A stretch of DNA of 64,000 nt from Frisingicoccus sp. (GTDB lineage Bacteria; Bacillota; Clostridia; Lachnospirales; Lachnospiraceae), in the NCBI RefSeq assembly GCF_048388605.1, contig NZ_DBGCTU010000024.1, positions 6,939-70,938 of the forward strand. Reading direction: 5' to 3'. The notes beneath the pieces were generated by a model, which searched no databases, was not told where the DNA came from, and worked only from the letters and a program-made list of their open reading frames with translations. Position 1 is the first letter of the stretch; each line of letters opens with the position of its first letter. Below, one piece after another: positions 29,914 through 59,561 of the stretch. The position numbers were made by a program, and so were the translations under genes.

Positions 29914-29987
29914 GTCGCTATAGCTCAGTTGGATAGAGCGACCGCCTCCTAAGCGGTAGGCCGGAGGTTCAAATCCTCTTAGCGACG
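29914..29987 (+). tRNA. tRNA-Arg (anticodon CCT)
   Basis: Hand-folded cloverleaf. Acceptor GTCGCTA/TAGCGAC, D stem GCTC/GAGC, anticodon stem ACCGC/GCGGT with loop CTCCTAA, T arm GGAGG-TTCAAAT-CCTCT, discriminator G. Length is 74 nt and no CCA is encoded. Confidence 0.92.
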
Positions 29988-29993
29988 CTTTAG

Positions 29994-30037
29994 AAATGCC
30001 GAAAATACTGGATTTCCAGAATTTTCGGCATTTTTTC
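29994..30037 (+). terminator. intrinsic terminator after tRNA-Arg
   Basis: AAATGCCGAAAAT / ATTTTCGGCATTT forms a 13-bp stem followed by TTTTTT. Confidence 0.75.
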
Positions 30038-30152
30038 TCATCTAAGTTTGCTAGTCAAAATAGCAGTTCTGCTAGTTTTACCAAAAGTTTTGTCATGTCA
30101 GTTATTGTTTCTGTTTGCTTTTTACGTAAATAAAAAGGAGAACCAGACGCAT

Positions 30153-30200
30153 CCGATTCCCCCAAGTACGCTCCATAGAGACGCACCGCTATTCACATTT
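30153..30200 (+). repeat. 48-bp direct repeat, left copy (putative island boundary)
   Basis: CCGATTCCCCCAAGTACGCTCCATAGAGACGCACCGCTATTCACATTT matches 55579-55626 at 46 of 48 positions. The flanking sequences are unrelated. Confidence 0.85.
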
Positions 30201-30237
30201 ATAGTATACAAGAAAGAGATAGAAAATGCAAGGATTT

Positions 30238-31149
30238 TCACGACTTAACAAATTTTTTTAATTTGGTAAGTTTAGCATTATTATCTGTATGGATAATTTG
30301 GTTGAAAATGCTTATTGGAATATTGCTGCGTAGTTTTTCTACAATATCTTCAAATCCCGATATAACTCGCTTCATTTCTGTTTTAGATATATGGAGAAGT
30401 TTCAATTGGTAAATTACCAAAACTAAATAGTCCGTGATAGTTTCAAAAGTTAATCCTTTAACGCCGGTAGCATTAGAAATAGCATTTCCTACTTGTTTAT
30501 CAATGTTTCCGGTTCGGAAACGTGTATCAAAAATTACATCGTTATGTGCAATGGCATTTCGAAGATCTTTCGTGGCATAAATCAGACGTTGAGGCATCAT
30601 GGCATTTGAATCATCGGAATGTCGTATTCCAAGTTTTTTTGAAATATCTGCTCTGCAATTTTGATTTAAACATGAAACAAAATGACCAAATTCACCTAAA
30701 CTGAGCAATTCGAAGGTTGCCCATATTGGGAGGTTGGCATCTTTACGAAGATAGTGATCTGCAATTTTATTTCCATTTCCATAAGCATCAGTTTGAACTT
30801 TATAGATACGATTACGCAAATCTAACCGTCTTTTTAATTCTCGTTTGAATTTTTCCTCTGCCTTTTGTCGGTCGTATGTATTTTCATATGTTTTGCCTTT
30901 GGTGGAAAACATTTTATAGTTATCCAACAATTGATTATAGATGTTGATAAAATTTCCAGAATTTGTTGAAGCCACTAAAATATCCAGAACATAATTTTTG
31001 ATAGCTGTTTCTATTAGCATTACGTTAGGATAAAATAAAGATTTTAATTGGGTATCAAAGTCATAGACCGCAACCAATTCTTCAAATTTCGTATAAGAGA
31101 TATGATTTGAAGGTGTGTTTATGTAACGATACCCTTTATATCCATAAAG
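30238..31149 (-). pseudogene. Abi_2 (AbiD/AbiF-like) abortive-infection gene, 5'-truncated
   Basis: The translation has Abi_2-like features. The frame stays open upstream of the track's TTG (LYGYKGYRYINTPSNHISYTKFEELVAVYDFD) with no ATG or RBS, and it runs into the oppositely oriented integrase remnant near 31150. Confidence 0.6.
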
Positions 31150-32163
31150 ACCATCCGGGAACTGCTGGAGGAATATGTCTCCATTTATGGAGTGAATACC
31201 TGGGCGCTTTCCACCTATGAGGGGCGCAGGGGGCTGATCGATAACTATATCAATCCGATTATCGGGGATATGAAGCTGGATGAAGTGACACCCCGCGTGA
31301 TAGACCGGTATTACAGGAACCTGCTCACTGTGAAATCGAAACAGCGGCCTTACCAGACGTCGCAGAACGAGTTCCTTTCACCTAGGACAGTAAAGGAAAT
31401 CCATAAGCTGCTCCGTAATGCGTTCAACCAGGCGGTGAAGTGGGAGCTGATGTCAAGAAATCCGGTAGTGAACGCTACGTTGCCGAAAAGCGAGGCGAAG
31501 CCCCGTGATATCTGGACGGCGGATATCCTGTTCCATGCTATTGAGCTTTGTGAGGACGATATCCTGAAGCTGGCGCTGAACCTTGCTTTTTCCTGTTCCC
31601 TGCGGATGGGTGAAATGCTTGCCCTTACCTGGGACTGTATCGACATAACACAGGAGAGCATAGAAGGCGGACGGGCCAGCATTTATGTCAATAAAGAGTT
31701 GCAACGGGTGCAGAGGGAATCCCTGCAGGCGCTGGATGGAAAAGGCGTTATAAAAACCTTCCCGGCGCGGCTGGCATCTCGGCATACGTCGCTGGTGCTG
31801 AAGAAGCCGAAAACAAAGACCAGTGTGCGGCGTGTGTTCCTGCCAAAGACGATAGCGGAGATGCTCCAGGAAAGATACAAAGAGATTGCGGAGATGAAAG
31901 AGCTGTTTGGGGATGAATATAGCGATTACGACCTTGTGTTCTGTTCCCCGATGGGGACGCCGATTGAAGGGCAGGTAATTAACCGTGCGCTGAATAAGCT
32001 GATTACAGATAATGACCTTCCGAAGGTCGTATTCCATAGCCTCCGCCACAGCAGCATTACATACAAGCTGAAACTGAACGGCGGCGATGCTGAAAACGCT
32101 GGTGCAGGCGATATGATATCGAGAGAAAGAGCAGGGCAGAGAAAAGCTTTGCTTTTTCTTTAA
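31111..32163 (+). pseudogene. tyrosine recombinase/phage-type integrase, truncated at both ends
   Basis: The core-binding and catalytic regions are present (TIRELLEEYVSIYGVNTWALSTYEG, the box I Arg in LRMGEMLALTW, and HSLRHS). There is no proper start. After LKLNGGD the sequence turns into unrelated residues and stops before the catalytic Tyr. Confidence 0.7.
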
Positions 32164-32255
32164 TAAAAATTTTTAAAATAATAAAGATAGGAAAGTAAGA
32201 CAATAATAAAACATATGATGAAAGGGAAAAATTTAGTTATGAGAACAGAAAGGAA

Positions 32256-32284
32256 TTGCAACTTGACGCAATCAATGTTACAAT
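32256..32284 (+). promoter_or_regulatory. promoter of the small-ORF/HD operon
   Basis: TTGCAA (32256-32261), a 17-nt spacer, then the extended -10 TGTTACAAT (32276-32284). Confidence 0.5.
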
Positions 32285-32329
32285 ATTTAGAACTAATCAC
32301 AATCTAAGAAAAACGGAGGGGTATGTAAA

Positions 32330-32689
32330 ATGTGTTTTTATATTGGAATAGAAGATTTGGCAGCCAATGCGCTCATTGAAGCGATGAAAAAGGGAAAAAA
32401 GCGTTTTCTAACATATAATGAAATAGAAAGTTATGGAGCTGAGGTTGTTCAGATTTTACATGAGAATGGTGAAAAAGCGGTCTTGGTTCTTTCGCGTGAC
32501 AATACAGATGCACTTTTTAGAAATTATTCTGAATTTTTTGAGGAAAGTGAAGAAGATGGGAAAAAAGGTATCTTATTACGTTCCGGAAAGGAAATTGAAG
32601 ATTTGGTTCATCAGTTTAGAGGTTATTTAGCATTAGATGTCTTGTTGGCATTTATGAACCAGAGGTCTATTCAGGCGTTGGGAGTATAG
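32330..32689 (+). CDS. hypothetical acidic 119-aa protein, coupled to the HD gene
   Basis: GGAGGGG RBS 8 nt upstream. The stop lies 2 nt before the HD gene ATG. I recognise no motif in it. Confidence 0.6.
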   Translation: MCFYIGIEDLAANALIEAMKKGKKRFLTYNEIESYGAEVVQILHENGEKAVLVLSRDNTDALFRNYSEFFEESEEDGKKGILLRSGKEIEDLVHQFRGYLALDVLLAFMNQRSIQALGV

Positions 32690-32691
32690 GT

Positions 32692-34326
32692 ATGAAAGAC
32701 TACAAAAGAATTAAAGACCCCATATATGGATATATACAAATACCGGTAAGGTATATGACAGATATTGTTGACACAGCACCGTTTCAAAGATTGCGGAGAA
32801 TAATACAAACAAGTTATTCTCCGCTTTACTCTTCTGCGGTACACAATCGTTTTGTTCATTCAATGGGCGTTTATTATCTGGGAGAATTGGCAGCTGATCA
32901 GTTGACTAGAGAAGCAACAGTTAAAATAGATAATACAATTAATTTTTCTATGTATGGTGAAGTTTTCAAGCTTGCATGTCTTTTACATGATGTAGGCCAT
33001 GCTCCCTTTTCTCATACGGGAGAGAGTTTTTATCTTGGTGAAGATCATGATTATACAAAGTTGCACGAAAAGTTAATTGAAGTTATTGGAAGTACAGAAT
33101 TTGAAAGGGACATTCCGCAGGATAAAAGCTTAGCAGCTGCACCACATGAGATTATGAGTGCGATAATAGGTGTTTTAAAATATAGAACTTTTTTTGATAC
33201 TGTAGAGAAAAAAGAGCTTTTTGTTCGTTGTATTACGGGGTATAAATATTCTGTAAGAACGACAGAAAACAGTATAAAGAATTGTTTTATTTCAATGCTT
33301 AATTCTAAGGTAATTGATGTTGATAAGTTGGATTATCTAATCAGGGATGCATACATTACAGGATTTGATACAGTAAATATTGACTTTGAAAGATTACTTT
33401 CTTCACTTACACTTTCAAAGAATAATGGAATGTATGAGATTGCATATAATAAAAACGCAATTAGTGTTATTGAAAATGTAGTTTATGCTCATGATGCAGA
33501 AAAGAAATGGATTCAAACACACCCTGTAGTTCTTTATGAGGCTTACATACTTCAGCATGTTTTTTCGCATTTAAGTGAAAATATGGATAATGAAGGTAAA
33601 AAATTATTTTCTTTGGAATCATTAAGCGTAGAGGGGCAGCAATTTAATGACAATATATCTATTGCCTTATTATGTGATGATGATATAATTTTTTTGATGA
33701 AAAATGTATATCCCAATGAAATTAGTAAAGAATTTTTTGAGCGTAGAGAAAGGCGTCACCCTGTATGGAAGTCAGAGGCCGAATATAAAGCTTTTGTTTT
33801 AAATTTGGCGAGAGGTGGCGAACTTTTGCAGGAGTTTGAAACCGCCATGAGTGTTACTGCAAAATATCTCATTAAAAGTACTGATTCATGGGTTATAGAT
33901 GATGCGCTCATTGATAAGCTTGAAAAAGAAAAAGTGGTTCTTGAAGGAATGGATATAGATCCTGAGACAAAAGAAGTGCAGTTAGGAAATAAGATAAAAA
34001 TTTTAAAGGTAATGCATTCTTTACAGAGTTATGCAAAAGAAAAAGGAATTGAATGCAATTTTGTGATTTTGATGGCTTCGCAGTTTAACAGTGGATTTGG
34101 AAAATCAGACTTTTCTGCGACAAAAGTAGTGTTCCAAACGAAGGATGAGGACAAAGTTGCTAAGGTTGGTGATATTGTATCTTCATTGCAAGCAAAGGAG
34201 AAGGAAAGAGATAATTTCTTTTACCTATTTTATAAGAGAAAAGAAGATATGAGCATAGATGATATAGAGATAGATAATCAAGAGATATGTAAAAGATTAT
34301 TTAAAGAAGTTGTTTTTGAGGATTAG
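32692..34326 (+). CDS. SAMHD1/dGTPase-like HD-domain dNTP triphosphohydrolase
   Basis: Contains IKDPIYGYIQIP, TAPFQRLRRIIQ, HNRFVHSMGV, LLHDVGHAPFSH and DVDKLDYLIRDAYITG. This is the ordered motif set of the dGTPase/SAMHD1 HD family. The C-terminal 200 aa or so are unassigned. Confidence 0.8.
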   Translation: MKDYKRIKDPIYGYIQIPVRYMTDIVDTAPFQRLRRIIQTSYSPLYSSAVHNRFVHSMGVYYLGELAADQLTREATVKIDNTINFSMYGEVFKLACLLHDVGHAPFSHTGESFYLGEDHDYTKLHEKLIEVIGSTEFERDIPQDKSLAAAPHEIMSAIIGVLKYRTFFDTVEKKELFVRCITGYKYSVRTTENSIKNCFISMLNSKVIDVDKLDYLIRDAYITGFDTVNIDFERLLSSLTLSKNNGMYEIAYNKNAISVIENVVYAHDAEKKWIQTHPVVLYEAYILQHVFSHLSENMDNEGKKLFSLESLSVEGQQFNDNISIALLCDDDIIFLMKNVYPNEISKEFFERRERRHPVWKSEAEYKAFVLNLARGGELLQEFETAMSVTAKYLIKSTDSWVIDDALIDKLEKEKVVLEGMDIDPETKEVQLGNKIKILKVMHSLQSYAKEKGIECNFVILMASQFNSGFGKSDFSATKVVFQTKDEDKVAKVGDIVSSLQAKEKERDNFFYLFYKRKEDMSIDDIEIDNQEICKRLFKEVVFED

Positions 34327-34598
34327 ATTGGTTTTACGGTAAAACCATATAGAATCTATACCAGCAATCACCATCTTATACAGGCGTTACACCAGATTGC
34401 ACGAGATTATACGTGCTTGCAAATGTGACGATTGCCCTTTTTCAGGGGGTCTGCTAATGGCTTGCTAATGGAACCACTTAAAACCAGCTTATATCAGCTT
34501 AATCGTGCCTGTACTGGCTTGACAGTGAAATGTGAAAAAAGCTTGATTTTGCTTGACTTTTCTTATACCAACTTACTTCTGCCTGACACCTTTGGGGC

Positions 34599-34644
34599 GA
34601 ACTCCTAAGCGAGGGGTCAGAGGTTCAAATCCTCCCGGAGACGG
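34599..34644 (+). other. tRNA 3'-half-like fragment 1 (anticodon loop to acceptor 3' strand); putative att remnant
   Basis: GAACTCCTAAGCG...GAGGTTCAAATCCTC...GGAGACGG shares CTCCTAAGCG with the tRNA-Arg anticodon arm. No matching 5' half lies upstream. Confidence 0.6.
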
Positions 34645-34651
34645 CTGCTAA

Positions 34652-34698
34652 AAGCGGGAATTATTAGCCGGAAAGGTTGAATAATTGTCCGCTTTTTT
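34652..34698 (+). terminator. intrinsic terminator following tRNA-like fragment 1
   Basis: GCGGGAATTATT / AATAATTGTCCGC long stem followed by TTTTTT. Confidence 0.6.
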
Positions 34699-35234
34699 CT
34701 TTGAATAAGAGGTGTTTGTTTTGATGTACCCCTGTGTTTAGACAGGTAAATCAGAGGAAAGCTCGGATAAGGGATTTGATAAGCAATATAAATGTATCAG
34801 TTCAGGCCGTGCCATTCGTAAAACCGCACTACGTGCTAACCGCGGCTGTCGCCGCTGTTTTACTCATATTCGGGCGCTCAGCACATCTGAATATCAGTCG
34901 CCGGATTTTTATGCGAGCATAAATCCGTCGCCTGACATCAGATGGCTGAACTGATATATATAAATTACATGAAGTGTCAAACGAGAAGCTCGTTTGGATC
35001 GGATTTACAAAATCCGGTCTGAACGGGCTTTTTCTGTTTCAGAAAAGAGAGGAGGCAGAGATGTGGAAGAAAGAGAGAAAGTGAAAGAGTATTGCGGAGT
35101 ACGGTATCCTGGATGATGATCGAAAGAAAAATGCGGAGCTGTTTGAGAAAGCATACCGGAATGAAATACAACACTTTACATTTATGCTTAAAAATAATAT
35201 AATATAAGAAAAAATGTAAAGAAGAGAGATATAT

Positions 35235-35828
35235 ATGACTAAAACAATGCTTTTAGAACAATTAATTGAAAAAAACCATGGGTATCTTCTTACTGCCCTT
35301 GCAGAAAAGAACCAGATTTCCAGAACATACGTAATGAAATATGTGAAAGCACATTCTATGGAGAAGGTTGCGCAAGGGATTTATATAGCTGATGATGTGT
35401 GGCCGGATGAATTATTTATCCTTCAGATCAGAAATCCTTCGGTTATTTTTTCTGGCGAAACTGCTCTTTATCTGCATGGCTTAATTGACAGAGAATATAC
35501 AGAAGTCTGTATTACAGTACCGAATGGATATAATGCCACTCGTTTGAAAAGAGATAATGTCCGGGTGAAATATGTTCCAAAAGAAATTCACAGTATGGGA
35601 GTTTGCGACGTTCCTTCCATCAGTGGGAATATAGTCAGAGCTTATGACAAAGAAAGATGTATCTGTGAATTGATAAAAGACAGAAAAAAATATGAAATAC
35701 AGAATTTTCAGACAGCAGTAAAAGATTATATGTCAAGGAAAGAGAAAAATTTATCCAGATTGCTTGAATATGCAGAAAAACTGAAAATCAGGGATGAAGT
35801 GATGAAATATGTGGAGGTACTTGTATGA
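35235..35828 (+). CDS. AbiEi/AbiGi-family antitoxin-like protein (type IV TA, abortive infection)
   Basis: 197-aa ORF with an N-terminal wHTH. Its overall sequence is typical of AbiEi_4-type proteins. It overlaps the downstream AbiEii-like gene by 4 nt (ATGA). Confidence 0.7.
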   Translation: MTKTMLLEQLIEKNHGYLLTALAEKNQISRTYVMKYVKAHSMEKVAQGIYIADDVWPDELFILQIRNPSVIFSGETALYLHGLIDREYTEVCITVPNGYNATRLKRDNVRVKYVPKEIHSMGVCDVPSISGNIVRAYDKERCICELIKDRKKYEIQNFQTAVKDYMSRKEKNLSRLLEYAEKLKIRDEVMKYVEVLV

Positions 35829-36373
35829 TTCATACATCAAAACAGCTAAAAGACAAAGTGCGTAACCTTTCAAAAGGAGATAATGACATTGCGAAGGCAC
35901 TGATCCGGACATTTATGATGGAACGATTCCTTGAAAGGGTTTCTTTATCGAAATATAGAGAAAATCTTATTTTAAAAGGCGGAATGCTTGTAGCATCTAT
36001 AGTGGGAACGAACTTAAGAGCAACAATGGACATTGATACAACAGTTAAAGCGCTTCCTTTAAATAAAACTGAGGCAGAAAAAATAGTGGATGAAATAGCT
36101 GCAGTACCTGTTGAGGATGGCGTGACCTTTCAAATTAAGTCTATCACAACGATTATGGATGATTTCGACTATCCGGGTGTCAGGATTATGCTTGAAGCTA
36201 TATTAGAAAAATTGAGGCAGAGTATAAAGCTTGATATATCTACAGATGATGTTATGGCTCAGATGTGGGAACGGTTTCGCAAGAAAAATTATTTTGTCGG
36301 TGAACTTCAATGGGAGGAGGTGTCCGGAAAAGTTATTCAAAATATACAAGAGATTGTAGTCGAAAAGTCGTAG
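35825..36373 (+). pseudogene. AbiEii/AbiGii-family nucleotidyltransferase toxin, abnormally short (probable internal deletion)
   Basis: The N-terminal NTase core is present (ILKGGMLV, MDIDT). After KLDISTDDV the sequence jumps to a C-terminal-like tail (WERFRKKNYFVGELQWEEV). It is 182 aa, whereas I recall this family as substantially longer. Confidence 0.55.
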
Positions 36374-36622
36374 ACAAACCGACCATATCACGGTATTATA
36401 TATATGTAAATCCGATTAATTTAATACTGTTTATCATTCCTGCACAACGGGAAATGGTAATCGATTCTAAAGCAGGCCATGAACAGTAATGCATTGTCCT
36501 AATATTTCATCTTTAACTCGGCATTACAGAGGCTTACAGTAATTAACCGGATTCGATTGATAAATCAAGAAATAACGTTGTTTTCTTATCATAAAAGGGA
36601 ATCGGCTTGACAGGCATGATTT

Positions 36623-36667
36623 GAACTCCTAAGCGCTAGCTGTGGGTTCGATTCCCGCAGGGGACGG
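36623..36667 (+). other. tRNA 3'-half-like fragment 2; putative att remnant
   Basis: GAACTCCTAAGCG (identical 13-mer to fragment 1), then the T arm GTGGG-TTCGATT-CCCGC, then GGGGACGG. It is followed by a hairpin and TTTTTT at 36677-36730. Confidence 0.6.
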
Positions 36668-36726
36668 TTGCAAACAAAGCGGTAATGATTAGCAGAAAAT
36701 GCTATGTCATGAAACGCTTTTTTGTT

Positions 36727-36933
36727 TTCATCAAATAAAAAAAGCAAGTGGGATACCGTCATAATCCATAAACAGCCTCATGCCGACAAGAGGAAGTAGT
36801 TGGTACAGTCATAGTAAAGGATATCCCTGTGCCGTTCAAGAATTTTTTGACTGTTTTTGTAAAGTTCCGCCTGAATAAAATCATTTTCCTCGGCGAGTAC
36901 GGAAAGGGCACGGTAAATGTCATTCAGGTCATA
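36727..36933 (-). pseudogene. IS1634/IS4-superfamily transposase fragment
   Basis: The minus-strand translation gives DIYRALSVLAEENDFIQAELYKNSQKILERHRDILYYDCTNYF then a stop. In another frame it gives LFMDYDGIPLAFFI. Both are conserved blocks of IS1634-type DDE transposases, with the intervening region deleted. Confidence 0.55.
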
Positions 36934-37464
36934 TTATAAGGGTTAGAAGGTATTTATTTGATAGAAAAACGAGATCAGACTGTCAAACTTCCGGATTCTT
37001 TTATTCACTAAAAAAGAATTGTAATTTATGTATAATTTTCGTATAATAATAAAGAGACTATGAAGGGGTCTTTTCTGCACTTATGGTTATGGAACTCTAC
37101 GGATTCACTTATTTTCTGAATTTTTATTCTGTTCCGTGACGGAATTGTCCGGAATATGCGCCGGTTGTCATGGAATATTCGGTCATGGCAGAGGAAACCA
37201 CTGGAAAGATTCTTGCAGAGATGAAATGACAGATAGTATCTGATTGCAGCTGTACCAAACAGTTCATATATATATGGCTCAGAAAGTATGCGTGAGGGCA
37301 CGATTTTGTTACGGTATCTTTGATATAATAAAATATATTTTACATAAAATGAGCTGCCCGACAAATGGTGAGCCTGCAGATTTTTTCGCACTTTGTGCTT
37401 TCAAAATCTGCAAAATAAAATAAGATGTTTGTATATAAGATTACTTGAAAAGGGGGATCGAATC

Positions 37465-38130
37465 TTGAAAAAGACGGAAAATACAGAGGTTCGAAAACAT
37501 TCATGGAGGCATATGTTTCTAACTATTCTGGGGACTGTTCTATGTATCATTCTGATTCCGATTTTAATAATGAATATTTCGCTTATTGTGAAGAGCTATA
37601 CAAATAGTGATAAAGTTCCGAGTGTTGGTGGTTATCTGCCTCTGATCGTGCTGACAGATTCTATGTATCCGGAAATACACAGCGGAGATTTGATTATTTG
37701 CCATACGATAAATCCGGAGGAGGTTGCGACAGGTGATGTGATTGCCTTTTTTGATCCGGCAGGAAATGGGACAAGCGTTGTGACACACCGGGTGGTTGAG
37801 ATAACCAGGGAGAACGGGGAACTTGCATTTATCACAAAAGGTGATGCCAATAATGCGGAGGATCAGATGCCGGTGCCAGCGGGGAGTTTGGTGGGACAGT
37901 ACCGCACCCGTATTGCCGGAGCGGGTAATATCGCAATGTTTATGCAGACCACCACGGGACTGATTGTTTGTGTGGGTGTTCCGTTGGTTCTTCTGATCGG
38001 ATATGACGTTTTGCGCCGGAGACGCTATGAGAAGAGCAGGAAGGCGGATACAGATGCGCTGCTGCGGGAATTGGAGGAGCTGCGATCCCAACAAAAAAAT
38101 GAAAAAGGTCATTCGGAGGATGACAAATAG
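37465..38130 (+). CDS. sipW: SipW-type (S26B, ER/archaeal-type) signal peptidase I, copy 1
   Basis: Contains VLTDSMYPEIHSGDLII (catalytic Ser), THRVVEI (catalytic His) and KGDANN. A C-terminal TM helix is followed by a charged tail. The start is proposed at the TTG at 37465, 7 nt after AAGGGGGA; the upstream part of the track ORF has no RBS. Confidence 0.8.
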   Translation: MKKTENTEVRKHSWRHMFLTILGTVLCIILIPILIMNISLIVKSYTNSDKVPSVGGYLPLIVLTDSMYPEIHSGDLIICHTINPEEVATGDVIAFFDPAGNGTSVVTHRVVEITRENGELAFITKGDANNAEDQMPVPAGSLVGQYRTRIAGAGNIAMFMQTTTGLIVCVGVPLVLLIGYDVLRRRRYEKSRKADTDALLRELEELRSQQKNEKGHSEDDK

Positions 38131-42316: not shown

Positions 42317-45300
42317 ATGAGAAAGAAAAAAAGAGTATTAGCTGCTGTGTTTGCGGCGGTTTTGATTATATGTACGGTATTTGCGGAAGCGGATGTTACT
42401 GTTGCTGCAACAAGCATAGATACAAGTACATCAACAGATGCGGTTGTTCAGGAAACAGATGCGATGGTTCAGGAATCAGAGGAACAGATCGTTGATGAAA
42501 CGGAAACAGATGCGACGGTTCCGGAGACAGAAGACCAGATCGCTGATGAAACGGTGGATAACGTTCAGGAGACAATAGAGAGTGAGAGTGAAACGGAAAC
42601 TCAGGAGATAATTTCGGAAGAAACTGAGGAAGAAACTGAGGAGAAAACGCAAGAGGTAATTGCTTCGTATCCATGGTCTGATCTGGATGACGAGGCTTTT
42701 TGTGCATGGGTGACAGGCGGTGAGCATGATGAGAAACTCAAGGCCATGGATGAAGAACATGGTCAGGAGTATGAGGCCTTTCAGCAGCGTCTGGAAGAGA
42801 TCACTGCGCAGGATGTTCTGCAGCGCATCATGCAATATATAATGAATTTGAATGGATCAAACGAGAGCATAGCAACAATGAATATAGAAACAGAAGCATT
42901 TAATTCCATGTGTCAATCTATATTTGGAGTGGATTACGCTGGATTTAAAAGCAATACCAATTATGCTGAAGTTTATGTCGGACAGAACGCCGGCGGAGAA
43001 CAAACCGGTGATCTCGGCACGCAAACAAAGCCATATAATACGGTTAATGCGGCGTATTCTTCTCTATCCTCCAAATCAGGAGTGATCATCCACCTTTTGG
43101 AGAGTTATGGAAGTGTGTCTGAGCCTATAACGACTTGGCCTGATAATCCGATTCCTGCCATCATTGTCAGTGATGCATATGGAACAGCAGTTTTGAATAT
43201 GTCAGGCTTGAAATGGAACTTTCCTGCCAATACAGGCTTTTACAATGTGAAGATTAACCTTGCATATTCAGACAATACGACTGCAGCGATATTTGCCAAT
43301 GGGCATCATGTTGTATTTGGCGGTAAAGAAGAAAATAATTTTGCATTCATAAACAATAATGAAACGAATCGATATTATCCGACCCTGTTCGGCGCTTCAG
43401 AACAAGGTACAGGGACACAGAGCTCACACAGCTCTGTTGAAAATACACATCTGGAGGTTTATGGGGGAACATGGAGTCAGATTTTTGGCGGCGGTGAGTA
43501 CTATTCTGATGTAGACGGTACGGCAACAGTCATTGTGAATGGTTCCTATAGGGAGGACGGCACTCTTAAACCGGGGGCAGTTACATTTGCGGATACCGGG
43601 TTGTCCTATATGGAGGGCAGTAGCCATATCTATGGCGGCGGTGCAGGTGTTTACACTTTATTGTCCAAAGAAAATTACAGTAATGTTCAAAATACGGATG
43701 TTACGATCAGCTATATTACAACGAGTAAATATCTTACGCCCTGCGGGGGAAGTGTCACCGCCTCTGCAAAAATAAGTTTAGATTATGTCAATGCGATGGG
43801 CGTGAACGCCAGAAGCGAGGGTTCCAGTGCAAGTAAAGTATCTATTGTCATCCAGAACAGCACCATCAGCGAAGATGTTGGCGCATTAGGAGGCGGTGAC
43901 GGCGGCGCGAAGCAGGCATATAAGATGGTATCTGATATCAATGACTTTGATATCACAATAAAGAATTCTACTGTTAGGACTCTGTATGTAAAATCAAGAG
44001 CTCTTGCAGATGGCACATATAACAATTCTGTGACCGGTGTTGACTTATGTCTGGAAGACAGTACGTTTAATGAAATAACTCTGGCCAGGCTTCCCGCAAA
44101 TTACGAAAGCGGTACCGTTAATCGGCTGCGTTTAAAAAATGTAAGCTGCAATCGGTATCACGCGGAGGCAAATTTCAGAGAAATCAAACAAATCGAGCTC
44201 ATCGGGATCGGTACTGAGGCCGCGCCATTCAAGTGGGAGAACTATACATTTGGCAGCACGAATTACGGAAATGTAAATTCGGTCTCAGAGTCACTGCTGA
44301 TTGAAAACAGCTATGTAAACTTTGGGATTAACTATTCCACACAGAGTCTTGCGCTGAAAGGAAACAGCAGGGTCAGGCTGAAACAAAATCTTTCAATGGA
44401 AACGGGTGATTTTGAGGGTGATGCTGCAAGTCAGATCACGCTGGAAGACGGCAGCACCGTCAATATCAGCGGTGATGTTACCGGAACGGGAATAACGGTA
44501 GATCCTGTGTTTTCACCAGAAAATGCTTCGGCACAAATCCTGTGGAGCAGAGGAAGCAATCCAACGAACCTGTCCTATGTAAGCTCTGATAAAGCGGATT
44601 ATCGGTTCACGAAGGATTATACGGCAAGAATGGATATATGGAAGTGGTATAATTATGACCCTCCTGTATCAGAGTATTCTTATGTATATGTAGACGGTGG
44701 GCTTGGATATGATACTGCAGAGGAATACAATTCTGACCAGTGTACGGACGCAAATCTGGGGTATGATAAATTATATCCTGTGAAAACGTTTGCAAAGGCT
44801 TATTCGTTGTGTAAGGATTCAAATTACGTTATTGTTCTGTGCGGCGAATATGATCTGACCGTTGGCGAGACACCGGTAAGTCTGTTAGGGGATGCAGAAG
44901 CGAAGGATTTTCCGGTAAGAGTGCAGAGCACAGATGACAGAAATGACTATCGCAGCGTGGCAAAGCTGCGTTTTGCAGGAAGCACCGGAAATGTTACGTT
45001 ATCGGCGCCGCTGATTTTTGACAATATGAATCTGGAGTCATCGGTTGCCAATGGCAACGTCCGTATATTCAGTAATGGCAACAAAACCGAATATGGAGCC
45101 GGTGTGACCGTTATAAGAGTTGGAGATAAGTGCTCCGTTGAGGTATATGGCGGTGCAGACGGGGATAATGTTGCGTCTGCCGACCTTACCGTAAAGGCAG
45201 CATATTTTGATAAGATAGGTGCAGTCGGTAAAGATGATACAGCATCTGTGGGTGATGAAAATAATATTGTACAAACTGATATTGCGAAGCTCACGGTGAG

Positions 45301-48300
45301 TGAAAACAGCCAGGGTGTATCATCTGTGTGTTACTATGGAACCACATATGGAAGCGTACATACGGAGCTTTCCTATGCGGTTGGCAGTAAAAACATATAT
45401 AATGCTAATAGTAGTAACGGTACTGTGTATGGTGATTTTTATACAGAAGTTTCCAGCGGTAATGACAATAAGAAAAATGCCAGTGTTGTGCCCGATGGTC
45501 TGACGGTTAAGGGGAAAGTATCTTTTGTTGACCGGTCAGGAAAAACTTACTATGATTCTCTGAGTCTGAAAAAAGGTAATTTTAATGAGGTGTATATATA
45601 TCTGTCTGTTAAAGGTATAGGATCCATTGAACGTGGAAAATACGTTTCGCTTTTCGATTCGAACACAAAGGCGGATCATATAAGCTGGAATATATCAGGA
45701 AAGGTACCAAGAATTTTCGGAGCCAATGATAATGCGGGTATCAAGGCCGGAACCATGGCTGTGGATGTCGTCTTGAATAATACTGCGACAACCATCGTCA
45801 AAGCGTGTCCGGAAGCTGCCGGTAATACGGTAGACAGTGGATATCCGGAAAACGATAAGATAACGGTTACTCTGAAGGATTTTGCGGAAGGAAGCTATCT
45901 GGATGAGCTTTGGGGATTTGGCTCTATCGCATTTGATAACAGCAAGATTTTGGTAAACGCAGAAATCTCTGCGAAGAATGTTACTGTTGACCAGGGAAGC
46001 GTGGTTGTTTTTGCGAATCATGCGGCAATTGGATCTGCACCGGGTACGGGTAAGCTGACATTACAAAATGGTGGCAGTCTGGAAGTGCGAAATCAAATCG
46101 CTGTCAATGGCGATATGTGCGGCGGAGAATCGGCCGACGCTGCCGGAACGCTGATCGATAACTGGGCAGACGCAAACGACGAGACAGTAAGGATAACCGT
46201 TACCGGGAAGTCAACCGGGTATACCTATTTCTCCACGGACTATGCAAGTGCAGAAATCCAGGTAATGGGAGATACATTGGGCCATGAGTATATGGCGCCA
46301 AAGCTGCCCCCGGAGCTGCCGCCGATGAAGATTACCTGTACTCCGGCAGCTGCGGCTTCTCCGGCCAAGGAGCGTATCTGGACAGTCGAGAATCCGGTGA
46401 GCAAAAAATACATTTTTGTGAATGGAACCATTGACTCCTCTGCATCTGACTATACATCACACAATGGCTCCACTCCGGAGCTGGCCCTTGCGACACTGGA
46501 AGAAGCCTATGATACGGTACTGAATAACGGATATATTGTCCTGTGCGGAGATATTTCCCTTTCTTCATGGCCATTGAATGGTACAAAATCAGTAACGCTG
46601 ACAAGCAAAGTAACCATTGGAACCGGAGAAACTGCACGTACCTATGATTTCTTTTCTGCAGCTGCAGCGCAGCCCAGTTTTCTGGTTATAACGGATAATC
46701 TTGAGTTAAAGGGAGTGACGACCTTTGAGTATTTGAATATCAAGGCGGATAAAAATTATGTTCTGGGGGCCTGCGGGCATAAGCTTGTAATGGGACGTCA
46801 AGGCGATCCTGATTCTCTTAAGATGACAAATTTTCCGATTAGTGTTGGAGGCGGCGGATATAATCATGCGTATTCAAATATAAACAGTGATCTGACCATT
46901 CATGCGGGAATCTATAATATTGTTTCCGGCGGCAATAGTAGTGATATTATTAATGTATATAATAAATACAGCAGCGTGAATATTACGATTGATGGCGGAA
47001 CATTTCAGTCGGTCTATGCAAAATATAATTTATATGATGATTTTTCTGCTGCCAATGAAATATCTCTGTCAATCTGCAAGGCAAAGGTCGAAAATACGAT
47101 TTCTGCAATTAAAACCAATTATACGATGGGCAACGCTTATCAGGTAAATATTGGCGAAAACATGAAATTTGGTGAAGCGTGTTATATCAGAACCAGTGCC
47201 ACAACCATCAATTACACTCCCAATCCAGCCCCCAATATAACTTTCAAAATTGATGGCGGAACAGGGACCCGGTATAGAATTCCGACCATTTATGGCGGGC
47301 CAGGTGTTTATAACGGGAATAACACCATGAATGAAACAGTGACCGTGGATTTAAAGAATGTTGAAGTGGGCACTTTTATTTGTGGATCCTCGAATCAAAC
47401 TCTGCAGAAAAAGTCTAACGGTTCTATGGAATTGGTTTTAAATGAAAATGTTCATGTTTCCAAACTGTATTTGGGCGGTTCCATGCTAGCCGGCGCCAGT
47501 GCAAAGGTTTTTGTCAAATCGGATCAGGCAACCATTGATAAACTGCGTTCAGGCTCTGAGTTTTCAGCGTCAACGCCTGTAACATGCGAATTAACATATT
47601 CCACTGTGGGGACAGATTCAGAACATCCATATGTACTGAGCGGAGACGTTTGTCTGGATGGGCTGACAAAGTTAATCCTGAAAAATGCTGTGGTTGATTT
47701 TTCACAGGCAGGAAATTCAATCACGGTGGGAGAGATTAACGCCTCTGAGGGCGGCAGTATCATCCATAAGGGAAGGAACCTGACGCTGAATGCAGATTAC
47801 ACAGCCGGAACAAGTGACGAACCAACCATGTGGTATGGACAGAATGCCCCGCGCATTGTCATCAATGGTACGGTGAGCGGTACGACACACCTGCAGTCTT
47901 TGAGCGCTGACCCTTCGGCTGAAGATGGCAGTGTTACCGGTAAGTTCTATAATGGTATTTCCGTTACGGCGTCTCACAGTGATACTCATTCGGCAAATAA
48001 TTTCTTTGGACTTCAGTCCTCCGAAGGCGCAAAGCCTGAGTGGAAGGAACTTAAATTTACAGCGGGGACAGATACAGATACATGGAAAAAATCAGATGAA
48101 GGAGATACTGATGCCAGAATACAGGTGTATGTATCCTCCGAAGGGTCCGACAGCAATTCAGGCGCATTCCCGACGCCTGTCAAAACGCTGGCGCAGGCAT
48201 ATAAAAACGCGGATAGGCTTCATAAAGATGCTCCTTCCAAAACAAAGATTGAAATTATTTTGCTGGATGATATTGTGCATAATGGTGAGCTTCCGGCTTC

Positions 48301-51300
48301 GGCAGAATTGTCCAACGGTTTTTCTGTCCTGGTGAAGTCTTATGATGCCGCGTCTGCTTCCACGTTGACGATTGACAGTGACCCGGAGCTTCCGGTGGAT
48401 ACGACATTGGATAATATCATCATCAAAAGTACGGTTACGACAGGTTCTTGTGCGATTTTTGCAAACGGGAATACGCTGACTTGTACAGAGAATTTAAAGG
48501 TGGAGGCCGTCAATGGGCACTATCCTGTCATTTACGGCGGAACGAAGGATGCGACTGTCCTGGATCAGACGAACCTGCAGATATTTGGCGGAACCTGGAG
48601 CCGGATATTCGGAGGAAGTAAAACTGCATCTGTAACGACTGCAAATCTTTCGGTTGGAGGAAATGTTGATACTAAGAATGTCGGCAGCATAGCGGAAAAT
48701 GATACGGGCGTTTTCGGCGGAGGAGAGAATGGAACTGTTGGTACGGTGAACCTGAGCATTGATGGAGGTTCGTTCTATCGTGTGCTCGGCGGAGGTCTGA
48801 ATCCAGCCGCTGTTGTGCAGGGGAATATAACTGTTGATTTCAATCATGGGACAATTGACAGATTGTACGGCGGAGGACAATGGGCCCAAACTAACGGCAA
48901 TATTACAGTGAACATTGGCGGATCAAATGCTGAAGCAATGATTACGTCGATATTCCGCGGCAGCGGTCTGTATGCGGGTGTTGCCGAAGGCCAAAAAGCT
49001 ACTACGAATGTTATGGACGGTGCAATCATCAAGGAAGGAGTACAATTTGCAGCGGGCGGATATTCCGGCAACCTCGATGAAACAGAATTGAACATTTCCG
49101 GAGGAAGTATCAACTGTAACGTTTTTGCAGGCGGCTGGGGCGAAGGTACGAATGGCGCCTATGGAATTGTAGGCGAGAAGGCAGCTGTTACTATCACAGG
49201 CGGAACGATTACAGGGAATGTGTACGGCGGCGGCAATCTTGCTTTGGTGCATAACAATGCTGACAATGCTGCTGCCCTTGTAACCGTAAAAGGCGGCGCT
49301 ATTACGGGAAACGTATATGGCGGCGGCTATTCCGCAGGCGTTGATAATACCAATGTGACGATTCGGTCAAATGTCAAAGGCAGTGTGTTTGGCGGTGGAT
49401 ATGATATTACAGCGGATAAGCTTCAGGTGCAGAAGAGCAGTACTGTTACATTAGAAAGAGGTACGGTTGAAGAATCCGTTTTTGGCGGGAGTGATACGGC
49501 GGGACTTATCTCAGACTCCGTATCTGTGACGATTGCCGGAGATGTAACAGTCAAGAATGGTGTCTTTGGCGGTGGAAGCAAGGCGGCGCTTCAGATTACA
49601 CCTGATGTGAAAGTAAATAAAAACAAAACACTTACCGGTAGTATTTATGGCGGCGGCAAAGGCGCGGTGAACGGAGCTGTAGGAGCGATACAGAATGGAA
49701 TGATGTCCTTTTTCGCGCTATTTAGTGCAGAGAAAAGTTATACGATCGACGGTCTGACCGATGCGAATGTGCCTTCCACAAATGTTATAATCGAAGGTAC
49801 CGTGACGGGCGATGTCTTCGGCGGCGGAGAGATGGCTACCGTTGGAAAAGAAGACAGTACAACATGGAATAAGACTGTTACGAATGTAACATTGGAGAAT
49901 GGCGCTTCTGTGGATGGAAATATCTATGGAGGCGGGAAAGGCCAGAGCGAAAAAGACTATGCCGTTGTATATGGTTGTACCAGCGTCAGCTTAAATGGCG
50001 GTACGGTTAAAGCTGATCAAGATGACGAGAAGGCTGTTGCCGGGGCGGTTTTTGGGGGCGGTCAGATTGCCCCTGTGGCAGGCAGTACAAATGTCATAGT
50101 GAACGGGGGAACAATCAGTAATATCTTCGGCGGTAATGATGTTGAGGGCGAAGTCAATCAAACGACCAATGTGACGGTACCTGAAAACAGTACAGCAACG
50201 GTTACTCACATTTATGGCGGAGGCCGTAATGCAGCGCATAATCGGAATTCCGAATCTGATAAAGCGAACAACGTAACAATCAATGGTGGTAGCATTACAC
50301 AGATTTATGGCGGTGGTTATGGTGCTGCAGCGGTTTCCGGTGATACAGATGTAACGATTGCAGGTGGCATTGTGACAGAGGTGTTCGGCGGCGGTAATGC
50401 AGCCAAAACGAAGAAAGCATCCGTGACGATCACAGGCGGAAGGATTGATACAGCCTATGCAGGCGGAAATGCCGCAACTGTGACAGGTACAGATGAAGGG
50501 GCCGCAACTCTGACGGTGAATACAACAGACGATGTTCAACATGTAAACACTGTATTTGCCGGAAACAATCAGGAACCAATGGACATTCAGCCGGTTCTTG
50601 TTCTGACTGACGGTAAAATCGGAACCGTTTATTGTGGCGGAAATGCCGGAATTATGAGAAAAGCAGATGGCCTGACTTATGATTTTGACTATCCGAATAT
50701 TGAAGTTGGTACAGTCTATGCCGGATGCAACAATACGCCAAGTGATACTCCGACGGCTGATGTGAAACTGAATCTGATATCCGGAATCTATCATACCGTT
50801 TATGGCGGAAATAATGTAAACGGCAGAATGCAGCAGACAGACGTGGTGATCGATCGGGCTGAATTAAAAGATTTGACAGTCGATACGGTCTATGGCGGAG
50901 GAAACAAGGCTGAATCCAAAGCCACGAAGGTTGAGCTGCAAAATGGTACAGCAGCCACGGTGTATGGCGGCGGTAATGCGGCTACGGTAACGGATAGTGT
51001 GAAGATTCAGATGGGCGTACCGGACGACACAGGAAGTATACCGGGAGATGTATTTGTTACAGACCTCTACTGTGGAAATAACCAGGCGGATATGAAGATC
51101 CAGCCGGAGATCGATCTTAAGAAGGGAACGATCACGAACTTCTACGCCGGGGGAAATGCCGGAGATATGCTGTATCTGAGTACTGCAGACGGAACTGGTT
51201 ATACGGCGAATTATACCTTTGCCAGCGAGCAGGTATCGATCACGAATCTGTTCGGCGGCTGCAATCAGGCGGATATGGCAGGAACGGTAAGGCTTGTCCT

Positions 51301-58700: not shown

Positions 58701-59561
58701 GTTACTCTGGATTTCAGGAAAAGCGGAAAAACCGTAAAGAGCGGTCCGATTGAAGAGTTGGTGGGATTGAACGCTTTGGTTGCAGATGATGACGCCGATG
58801 TATGTATGCATATCTGTGATATGCTGATCGAGATCGGTATGAGAACAGAATGGACGACATTGGGCAAAGAGGCAGTGCTGAAAGCGGAATTTGCAGTAAA
58901 GAATAATAATGAGTACAGCGCCTATATTATTGATTGGTTGATGCCGGACATGAATGGAATCGAAGTCGTTCGCCGAATCCGGCGTGTGATCGGGGAGAGT
59001 ACGCCGATCATCATACTGACGGCATATGATTGGGCTGAAATCGAAGATGAAGCAAGAGATGCGGGAGTCACCGATTTCTGTTCTAAGCCTTTGTTTATGT
59101 CAGAGCTTCGCGCAATTTTAAATAAACGTTTTGTGGAGGATACTGTTGATGCGGAACCGGAGGAGAAAACGGTTGATTTCGAGGGAAGGACGATTCTCCT
59201 TGTTGAAGATAATGAACTGAATCAGGAAATTGCCGTCGAGATTCTTAAAGAAGCAGGCTTTGTGATCGATGTGGCAAATGATGGTGATGTGGCGGTTGAT
59301 ATTATGAGTAAGGCGGTACCGGGACAGTATGATTTAATTCTTATGGATGTGCAGATGCCGACGATGGACGGTTATGAGGCGACAAAAGCAATCCGACAGC
59401 TCCCTGACCCGGAGATCGCCAACATTCCGATTCTTGCAATGACTGCAAATGCGTTTGATGAAGACAAGAAAAATGCCCTTGCGGCAGGTATGAATGGACA
59501 TATTGCTAAGCCGATTGAGATACCGGGATTGATGGAGATGCTGAGGGATATTTTGGCATAG
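55746..59561 (+). CDS. hybrid sensor histidine kinase with an extracytoplasmic Cache-like domain and two receiver domains
   Basis: Two TM helices bracket a region of about 270 aa that is presumably extracytoplasmic. H-box [27 protein letters not shown] and G2 box [13 protein letters not shown] are present. REC1 has [11 protein letters not shown] and REC2 has [13 protein letters not shown]. The start is at the ATG at 55746, after GGAGGGTG. Confidence 0.9.

Follow-up and report, generated by a model that had tools for sequence, protein, structure and literature searches.

The window analysed here was a stretch of 64,000 nucleotides (nt) of Frisingicoccus sp. (contig NZ_DBGCTU010000024.1, positions 6,939 to 70,938 of the forward strand), which originated from a metagenome assembly. 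Two adjacent genes on its forward strand were investigated. ORF A (open reading frame; 32330-32689) encodes an acidic protein of 119 amino acids (aa; isoelectric point (pI) 4.94) of an unrecognised family, and the ORF was confirmed; ORF B (32692-34326) encodes an HD protein of 544 aa. A Shine-Dalgarno sequence of A, GGAGGG (32316-32321, forward strand), was read directly in the sequence 8 nt ahead of the ATG, and AGGAG or GGGAG was kept at this position across the homologous loci, which are designated below by L numbers. The coupling junction between the two genes (32680-32691, forward strand) was made up of the Shine-Dalgarno sequence of B, GGGAG (32680-32684), embedded in the final codons of A, the stop codon TAG of A (32687-32689), the 2-nt spacer gt and then the ATG of B at 32692. 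The spacer was +2 nt in 19 loci. Where a B start was assignable, it lay between -8 and +9 nt, with three exceptions. A promoter was located upstream of A on the same strand (32256-32284) and consisted of TTGCAA, 17 nt and TACAAT with an upstream TG (extended -10), scoring 9/12 in the scan. An initial annotation of the locus had listed an own promoter, a 119-aa ORF and a 544-aa HD protein beginning 2 nt after its stop, and all three were recovered at the same positions.

The A-B pair was found to be conserved, its two genes being strictly linked and inherited together. Co-occurrence, which the initial annotation had proposed to examine, was followed in two independent sets. One started from A and comprised 60 species genomes, and the other started from B and comprised 80 metagenome loci covering 76% down to 32% identity. 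A full-length B was present directly downstream of A in about 44 of the 60 species genomes. In the B-seeded loci, A (detected by a hidden Markov model, HMM) was found directly upstream and on the same strand wherever B aligned at full length and the contig permitted; this applied to practically every full-length relative of B as far down as about 34% identity. When the two sets were pooled, both genes were intact and adjacent in 94 of 130 loci. The arrangement was convergent in three loci (L130, L152 and L153), where A came after B and was encoded on the opposite strand; the linkage therefore did not depend on translational coupling, since the genes were still adjacent there. The pairwise distances of A and of B were correlated (Spearman r = 0.90, 71 non-redundant pairs), which argues that the partners have not been shuffled. 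Partial mirror-tree correlations, in which a region of B co-evolving with A was sought, were too similar for the HD core and the tail to tell them apart (0.49 vs 0.50).

The same arrangement was observed in a remote HD clade (L159-L168), whose proteins of 469-527 aa were 32-36% identical to B and each had an abutting or overlapping upstream ORF of 95-113 aa. Several of these small ORFs begin with MC-x-x-I-E/S-x-x-N like A, some of them with MC..IE..N..NYF. This suggests a much wider superfamily of small ORFs paired with HD proteins. The databases name the pair only as 'hypothetical protein' and 'HD domain-containing protein', e.g. WP_070090206 and WP_070090205 of Merdimonas faecis.

The pair was carried by a horizontally mobile cassette of about 2.2 kb that comprised the promoter, A, B and a 3' flank (~32255-34455, forward strand), and its limits were determined from the ends of metagenome contigs. 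A rat-gut metagenome contig of 2196 nt spanned exactly 32255-34455 with about 97% identity and broke at both ends, from which a cassette of about 2.2 kb with its own promoter was deduced; other contigs departed from the window at 32225-32284 and at 34357-34455. The hosts in the A-seeded set were mostly Lachnospiraceae, with further occurrences in Clostridium, Acutalibacteraceae, Eubacteriaceae, Synergistales, Muribaculaceae and one metagenome-assembled genome (MAG) labelled Nitrososphaerota. This phylogenetic spread was patchy, and the identity of A and B was unrelated to host taxonomy. The flanks varied between species and were mostly housekeeping genes (tuf/fusA/rpsL/rpsG, metG, chemotaxis genes and glycosyltransferases). 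No third conserved gene was found beside the pair, the next-best neighbour cluster being an ABC-F ATPase in 8 of 61 loci.

Taken alone, the promoter of the window was not significant in this AT-rich region, where 17 sites were detected as compared to 11.7 ± 3.1 in shuffled sequences. A cassette-borne promoter was supported by the recurrence of TTGAAx-17-TGnTAtAAT at a distance of 40-50 nt ahead of A, which was seen in about half of the 60 listed loci and in unrelated genomic contexts, and these sequence data support a promoter that travels together with the A-B pair. Other 5' leaders were observed as well. A conserved leader that lacks TTGAAx-17-TGnTAtAAT and holds a GCATTTATGC palindrome was present in L002-L010, L020, L023 and L051, and a long inverted repeat lay between a distal TTGACA-type promoter and A in L053, L054 and L055 (110 nt upstream of A); such alternative leaders may be regulatory variants. 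Short contigs of a run labelled RNA-Seq covered both A and B, which was not taken as a proof of transcription because the run may contain DNA. On the 3' side, a palindrome, GGTTTTA cgg TAAAACC (34330-34346), directly follows the stop codon of B. As a terminator after B, this hairpin was weak, with a folding energy like that of shuffled sequences (z = -1.55). A strong terminator-like hairpin of 20 pairs followed by a T run was observed further downstream (34985-35031), within a gap of about 900 nt between B and the next gene, AbiEi (34327-35234), in which no convincing ORF was found.

B was assigned to the SAMHD1/EF1143 type of HD enzymes by motifs and predicted fold, and its active site is intact; the assignment was made because of the matches to sequences in the PDB, the invariant motifs of the clade and the Foldseek matches of an AlphaFold2 (AF2) model. 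In phmmer searches against the PDB, B matched EF1143 (2.6e-23), the fungal SAMHD1 9mr6 (3.2e-19) and human SAMHD1 (1e-13), and further matches were 2q14, 2hek and the C. elegans SAMHD1 orthologue, whereas the match to E. coli Dgt was far weaker (1e-5). Residues 1-300 (32692-33591, forward strand) were assigned to a SAMHD1/EF1143-type HD catalytic core with an N-terminal allosteric-like segment. The core residues H56, H99-D100, H103, H108, D209/D211, Y215 and D219 were invariant in 25 homologues, and the metal ligands of the H...HD...D type (H56, H99-D100 and D211) aligned with those of EF1143 and of the SAMHD1 orthologue. The motifs KRIKDP, FQRLRRI, HNRFVHSMGV, LLHDVGHAPFSH and DVDKLDYLIRDAY were likewise invariant across the 25 homologues, so that the full SAMHD1-type motif series reported in the initial annotation was confirmed; the last three aligned residue-for-residue with 2o6i, 2q14, 9mr6, 2hek and 6pwy. 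The pattern used to define the clade was R-F-x-H-S-x-G-V, L-L-H-D-x-G-H-x-P-F/Y-S-H and D-x-D-K/R-x-D-Y-L-x-R-D, and all of it was present in B. In the N-terminal KRIKDP...DT..FQRLRR segment, K5..D9-P10 and D27..Q32-R33-L34-R35 were conserved. This segment resembles the K-x-x-x-D-P ... D-x-x-x-F-Q-R-L-R stretch which forms the allosteric nucleotide site in the SAMHD1, EF1143 (Enterococcus faecalis) and TT1383 enzymes.

The AF2 model of B was of moderate confidence (predicted local distance difference test (pLDDT) 72). Its top Foldseek matches were 4lrl/3irh (EF1143), human SAMHD1, 9mr6 and 6pwy, all with a probability of 1.00, E values of 2e-10 to 1e-8 and template modelling (TM) scores of 0.42-0.52 (query) and 0.45-0.63 (target). 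On this model, the overall fold of B, i.e. the catalytic core and the C-terminal lobe, matched that of SAMHD1/EF1143 (TM 0.5-0.62), and the motif series of the catalytic and substrate sites is common to B and these enzymes as well. B differed from these enzymes by an identity of only about 18-20% in the structural alignment, by its divergent C-terminal region and by the small partner gene that was always present. The solved relatives of the SAMHD1/EF1143 type have been studied as stand-alone proteins. Residues 301-544 (33592-34326, forward strand) made up the C-terminal lobe and a lineage-specific extension. The sequence alignment with EF1143 ended near residue 303, and the tail alone matched no sequence in the PDB. 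The Foldseek alignments covered most of the chain, and the last ~90 aa were alpha/beta in the AF2 model; the earlier description of an unassigned tail of about 200 aa was therefore accurate only in part. The C-terminal ~240 aa diverged faster than the core (mean distance 0.65 vs 0.46).

From these motifs we strongly infer that B is a deoxynucleoside triphosphate (dNTP) triphosphohydrolase. An HD phosphohydrolase or nuclease of another kind, acting on a signalling nucleotide or a nucleic acid, would fit the observation that HD was the sole Pfam domain above threshold (31.7 bits vs a cut-off of 22), the divergent and partly unassigned C-terminal ~240 aa and the reported binding of nucleic acids by SAMHD1 itself. 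Such an activity is quite improbable, since the invariant residues of the SAMHD1/EF1143 site extend beyond H..HD..D to RFxHS, HDxGHxPFSH and DxDKxDYxxRD.

B was also compared with the anti-phage dGTPase models, which are of the Dgt type (Sp-dGTPase; family of Tal et al. 2022; NCBIfam NF041026 and PADLOC PDLC02374). The assignment of B to this family was rejected, as the NF041026 score was 32 bits against a cut-off of 400. Scores for other Dgt-type models were 33.4 vs 383 (NF003701) and 48.5 vs 152 (TIGR01353), the NCBIfam matches of this type were limited to residues 25-112, and the PADLOC dGTPase model reached 37.9 bits over the ~90 N-terminal residues. Moreover, the anti-phage dGTPase is a single gene, whereas B had a partner gene in 94 of 94 intact loci. 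Both are HD-superfamily effectors that would deplete dNTPs, with dNTP starvation of the phage as the proposed outcome. The dGTPase/SAMHD1 label of the initial annotation therefore held for SAMHD1/EF1143 and was imprecise for 'dGTPase-like', since B did not reach the cut-offs of the curated anti-phage models. B stood apart from the Dgt-type dGTPases, and the small ORF was conserved beside it; the grounds that the annotation had named for withdrawing its proposal, a clustering with housekeeping dGTPases and a small ORF that is not conserved, did not materialise. A two-gene variant of a dNTPase module, as it had suggested, is well supported, because the small ORF is conserved beside B and B is not of the Dgt type.

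The partner protein A belonged to a family of 740 close homologues (485 clusters at 50% identity) that were found mostly in gut Firmicutes and were almost all stand-alone proteins of 115-130 aa. The N-terminus MCFYIGIEDLAANA was invariant (pattern M-C-F/Y-Y-I-G-I-E-D-L-A-A-N-A), and the invariant polar residues were C2, E8, D9, N13, S55, R56, T59, Y66, E72, R97 and Y99. A confident AF2 model was obtained (pLDDT 84.5; predicted TM score (pTM) 0.80), in which a beta-alpha-beta-alpha-beta arrangement was followed by a beta-hairpin and three short helices. A had been left unrecognised in the initial annotation, and it remained so here: no match was found in Pfam, NCBIfam, PADLOC or PHROGs, and neither a single-sequence search nor a profile search of the PDB yielded a family match. 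Profile matches to AI-designed TIM barrels were compositional and were rejected. In the viral structure library, one match was significant (E 8e-5), an uncharacterised protein of 120 aa from a gut Myoviridae contig, which looks like a member of the A family.

A few remote relatives of A were found without B, one beside a membrane protein (L084) and one in a fusion, P0379 (L083:433-1269), in which a SocA/Panacea antitoxin domain is joined to an A-like domain with 45% identity to A. A scan of metagenomes for relatives of this fusion found none. Other apparent fusions of A (P0375, P0455, P0466 and P0482) were discarded, as they showed no recognisable extra domain and their starts may be mis-called.

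Foldseek comparison of the A model with the PDB gave nothing below E 0.1, the best match being weak and winged-helix-like (E 0.16). An A protein acting mainly as a transcriptional autorepressor, i.e. a winged-helix-like DNA binder with no direct action on the B protein, would agree with the best, non-significant fold matches, which were winged-helix domains such as Cdt1, ORC/Cdc6, BlaI, F93 and MarR, and with the place of the A domain in the Panacea fusion, where antitoxins often hold a DNA-binding domain. However, all PDB matches had E values of at least 0.16 and TM scores mostly of 0.3-0.5, the protein is acidic with only two conserved arginines, and the would-be recognition helix of the model has 4 residues. 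A search of the promoter region of A also revealed no meaningful or conserved operator-like inverted repeat. We consider this role highly improbable.

Beyond the cassette, the window represented the replication-origin neighbourhood of a gut Firmicute, with gidB, parA and parB annotated in L061. The cassette was located in a mosaic degraded island (29990-37300), the left edge of which was marked by a tRNA-Arg(CCT) gene (29914-29988, forward strand; ARAGORN). The island contained an Abi_2/AbiD-like abortive-infection gene (30238-31077, reverse strand; Pfam PF07751 1.1e-23, PADLOC AbiD 1.3e-19), a C-terminally incomplete tyrosine-recombinase (integrase) fragment (31192-32163, forward strand; positions 59-136 of 172 of the Phage_integrase profile) with a GC content of 0.49 vs 0.33 for its neighbours, the A-B pair, AbiEi of 197 aa (35235-35828, forward strand; PADLOC 5.4e-63), a truncated AbiEii of 182 aa (35825-36373, forward strand; PADLOC 2.5e-49, profile positions 8-148 of 294) and about 1 kb of short overlapping ORFs. 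The neighbours named in the initial annotation, Abi_2, an integrase remnant and AbiEi/AbiEii, were thus confirmed by Pfam and PADLOC. The PADLOC run that it had recommended returned AbiD, AbiEi and AbiEii in the window, no match for A and only the low dGTPase score for B. Further downstream, a signal-peptidase-like ORF (37393-38130) was followed by several ORFs with signal-peptide-like N-termini, an ORF of 4379 aa (42317-55456) and one of 1276 aa (55731-59561); the region 37393-59561 is possibly a surface-fibre or adhesin cluster.

Defence genes adjoined the pair in five contexts, namely in this window, L082, L160, L161 and L169-L172, and were not the rule. The description of a defence-gene graveyard was therefore accurate for the window and four other contexts, but not as a feature of the family. 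IetA/IetS (Gao_Iet) lay about 1.7 kb upstream of the pair in L082 (L082:2859-6279), the only IMG/VR 'viral' contig that carried the pair; it may represent a defence island instead of a phage. In L160 (L160:647-4494), an anti-phage dCTP deaminase (PADLOC dCTPase, 1.5e-93) was found directly upstream of a remote 103-aa ORF and a 506-aa HD protein; two predicted nucleotide-depletion genes therefore stand side by side there, as the deaminase adjoins the pair of small ORF and HD gene. PDC-M41B preceded the HD gene in L161. In a Merdimonas-like lineage (L169-L172, e.g. L169:4001-6346; 48 index blocks), A was intact, B ended at 205 aa and an opposite-strand Abi_2 occupied the place of the 3' part of B, and the same species cluster contained other short B variants of 214-464 aa.

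In the preferred explanation, A and B make up a self-contained cassette of two translationally coupled genes, which is horizontally mobile and brings its own promoter. B would hydrolyse dNTPs to deoxynucleosides and triphosphate, and its unrestrained activity would starve DNA replication. A would be made first and in a fixed proportion to B, and would bind B and gate its activity. Most likely, A would keep B inactive, as antitoxins and immunity proteins do, and a trigger, e.g. phage infection, would remove or override A; the depletion of dNTPs would then block the DNA synthesis of both phage and host. The parts of this scheme that we infer are the dNTPase activity, the physical binding of A to B, the direction in which B is regulated and the involvement in phage defence. 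The reading of the pair as a toxin-antitoxin (TA)-like or defence module for nucleotide depletion, in which A gates B, is given a probability of roughly 0.5. The pair is probably a self-restrained toxin or an anti-phage module, and a dedicated role in phage defence is plausible.

The layout of a bicistronic type II TA system was recognised in the small upstream gene, the abutting or overlapping frames and the promoter upstream of A. A TA-like or small defence cassette fits better than a core metabolic operon because of the patchy phylogeny, the scattered insertion sites, the own promoter and the frequent decay of B. A releasable inhibitor was proposed for A because of the gene order and coupling, the lack of loci with B and without A, and the persistence of A when B decays, and further because of the single Panacea-A fusion and the precedent of the Clover system. 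The evidence leans weakly towards A as an obligate regulator or antitoxin-like partner of B.

Several observations weigh against this reading. Among the 130 pooled loci, an intact A was found with a broken B in 11 and a broken A with an intact B in 0, the remainder being damaged in both genes or cut by contig ends, and this asymmetry was not significant (null probability 0.82^11, ~0.11), because B is a 4.6-fold larger mutational target than A. The Panacea fusion is weak evidence, as it came from a single contig of 1.9 kb with three ORFs, in which the downstream gene, an unrelated ORF of 176 aa, was not an HD gene. The association of the pair with defence genes was weak: among 150 immediate neighbours from 60 species searched with PADLOC, the families matched by multiple neighbours were generic (helix-turn-helix (HTH), ABC-F-like), and the defence-type matches listed (methyltransferase (MTase), UvrD-like, Snf2+HKD and PDC-S05) each came from a single neighbour. 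The pair was also rare on mobile elements. Only one viral contig of IMG/VR carried it, A had no match among GenBank phages or PLSDB plasmids, and phage records contained only distant HD relatives of B (27-29%).

The pair was, in addition, often placed between housekeeping genes (tuf, metG, chemotaxis) like a stable chromosomal resident, and it was fixed at one chromosomal locus in an abundant mouse-gut species (1030 index blocks). Both observations would suit a housekeeping or stress regulator of dNTP pools, in which B trims the pools, the role assumed for EF1143-type enzymes of Firmicutes, A is an accessory or regulatory subunit and no dedicated anti-phage role exists; the nearest solved relatives of B, which are cellular dNTPases, would suit it too. 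Such a function is nevertheless unlikely in view of the patchiness across phyla with A/B identity unrelated to host taxonomy, the variable insertion sites of a 2.2-kb cassette with its own promoter, the Abi, Iet or dCTP-deaminase neighbours in several contexts, and the state of B, which was often a pseudogene, including polymorphic truncations within one species.

A was also unusually conserved for a passive inhibitor, and its many invariant polar residues suit a ligand-binding or catalytic partner equally well. In this alternative, B would depend on A to become active: A could serve as a sensor, as an activating subunit or as a small partner with a ligand-binding or catalytic function, and would switch B on after binding a nucleotide or a phage component. 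The density of the invariant polar residues and the invariant N-terminal Met-Cys speak for it, the cysteine being kept even in remote relatives (MCYFIE, MCEVIE, MCVSIS), as does the conserved Gly-x-Glu-Asp at the predicted beta1-alpha1 junction, a common ligand-binding position; an obligate subunit would explain the strict co-occurrence equally well. On the other hand, an intact B with a lost A should then be tolerated, and none was seen, though the numbers are small; a small coupled first gene is typical of antitoxin-toxin pairs, and A was not matched by any nucleotide-binding or enzyme family. An activating A is thus rather less favoured, a minority possibility. A broader and more novel reading can be put forward only tentatively: A may found a new family of small protein regulators of SAMHD1-like dNTPases, in which the invariant N-terminal cysteine, together with a polar pocket, would detect a signal from the phage or a nucleotide and thereby switch the enzyme. 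The pair, together with the broader L159-L168 superfamily, may then represent a widespread, hitherto undescribed immune system of gut Clostridia that consists of two genes and depletes nucleotides.

The preferred reading, in which A restrains B, was compared with known systems. Phage T7 Gp1.2, which is small and acidic, blocks E. coli Dgt by binding to it, so dNTP triphosphohydrolases can be controlled by a protein inhibitor. Gp1.2 is a phage-encoded counter-defence protein, whereas A is encoded by the host beside the enzyme and has no detectable similarity to Gp1.2. Clover consists of the dGTPase CloA and the nucleotidyltransferase (NTase) CloB, and CloA is toxic without CloB (PMC12265719). 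Like Clover, A-B is a two-gene operon with a predicted dNTPase effector that would be restrained through the product of the partner gene. However, CloB belongs to the Pol-beta-type NTases and produces p3diT as the inhibitor, while A has 119 aa and no NTase match, motif or fold, a Pol-beta NTase with [D/E]h[D/E] not being found in A by Pfam, NCBIfam, PADLOC or Foldseek; CloA is Dgt-like and octameric, and B is SAMHD1-like. AvcID, a nucleotide-depleting TA pair in phage defence, is composed of a dCTP deaminase toxin and a small RNA (sRNA) antitoxin (PMC10511110), and differs from A-B in both the RNA antitoxin and the deaminase effector. A-B is therefore a member of neither Clover nor AvcID, as A is neither an NTase nor an RNA; in outline, the pair would resemble both by the combination of a nucleotide-depleting effector with a restraining partner. 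With type II TA systems, including Panacea (PanA) (PMC8832971), A-B shares the small upstream gene coupled to a larger, potentially toxic enzyme, the scattered insertion sites, the decay of the toxin gene while the small gene persists and the A domain fused to Panacea. Unlike in the described type II systems, no known toxin or antitoxin family in Pfam, PADLOC or NCBIfam matched A or B, the P0379 fusion being the sole link, and toxicity and neutralisation are predicted. Full-text literature searches did not turn up any account of a SAMHD1-like HD protein that is paired with a small ORF, and the A-B pairing was not covered in PMC13519002 or PMC13069673. The cassette thus holds a SAMHD1-type enzyme that is apparently controlled by a dedicated small protein of an unrecognised family.

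Among animal dNTPases, SAMHD1 serves as the antiviral model. For bacteria, to our knowledge, only Dgt-type dGTPases and, very recently, CloA/CloB of Clover have been tied to phage defence and the restraint of a toxic dNTPase. If A gates B, the pair would represent a third, protein-based way to restrain nucleotide-depletion immunity, after the two known ones, in which the RNA antitoxin AvcI or the nucleotide signal p3diT is used, and it would provide a simple bacterial model for protein-level control of SAMHD1-like enzymes. If the pair is a housekeeping one, it would still reveal that a dNTP-pool enzyme of abundant gut bacteria has an accessory subunit not recognised before.

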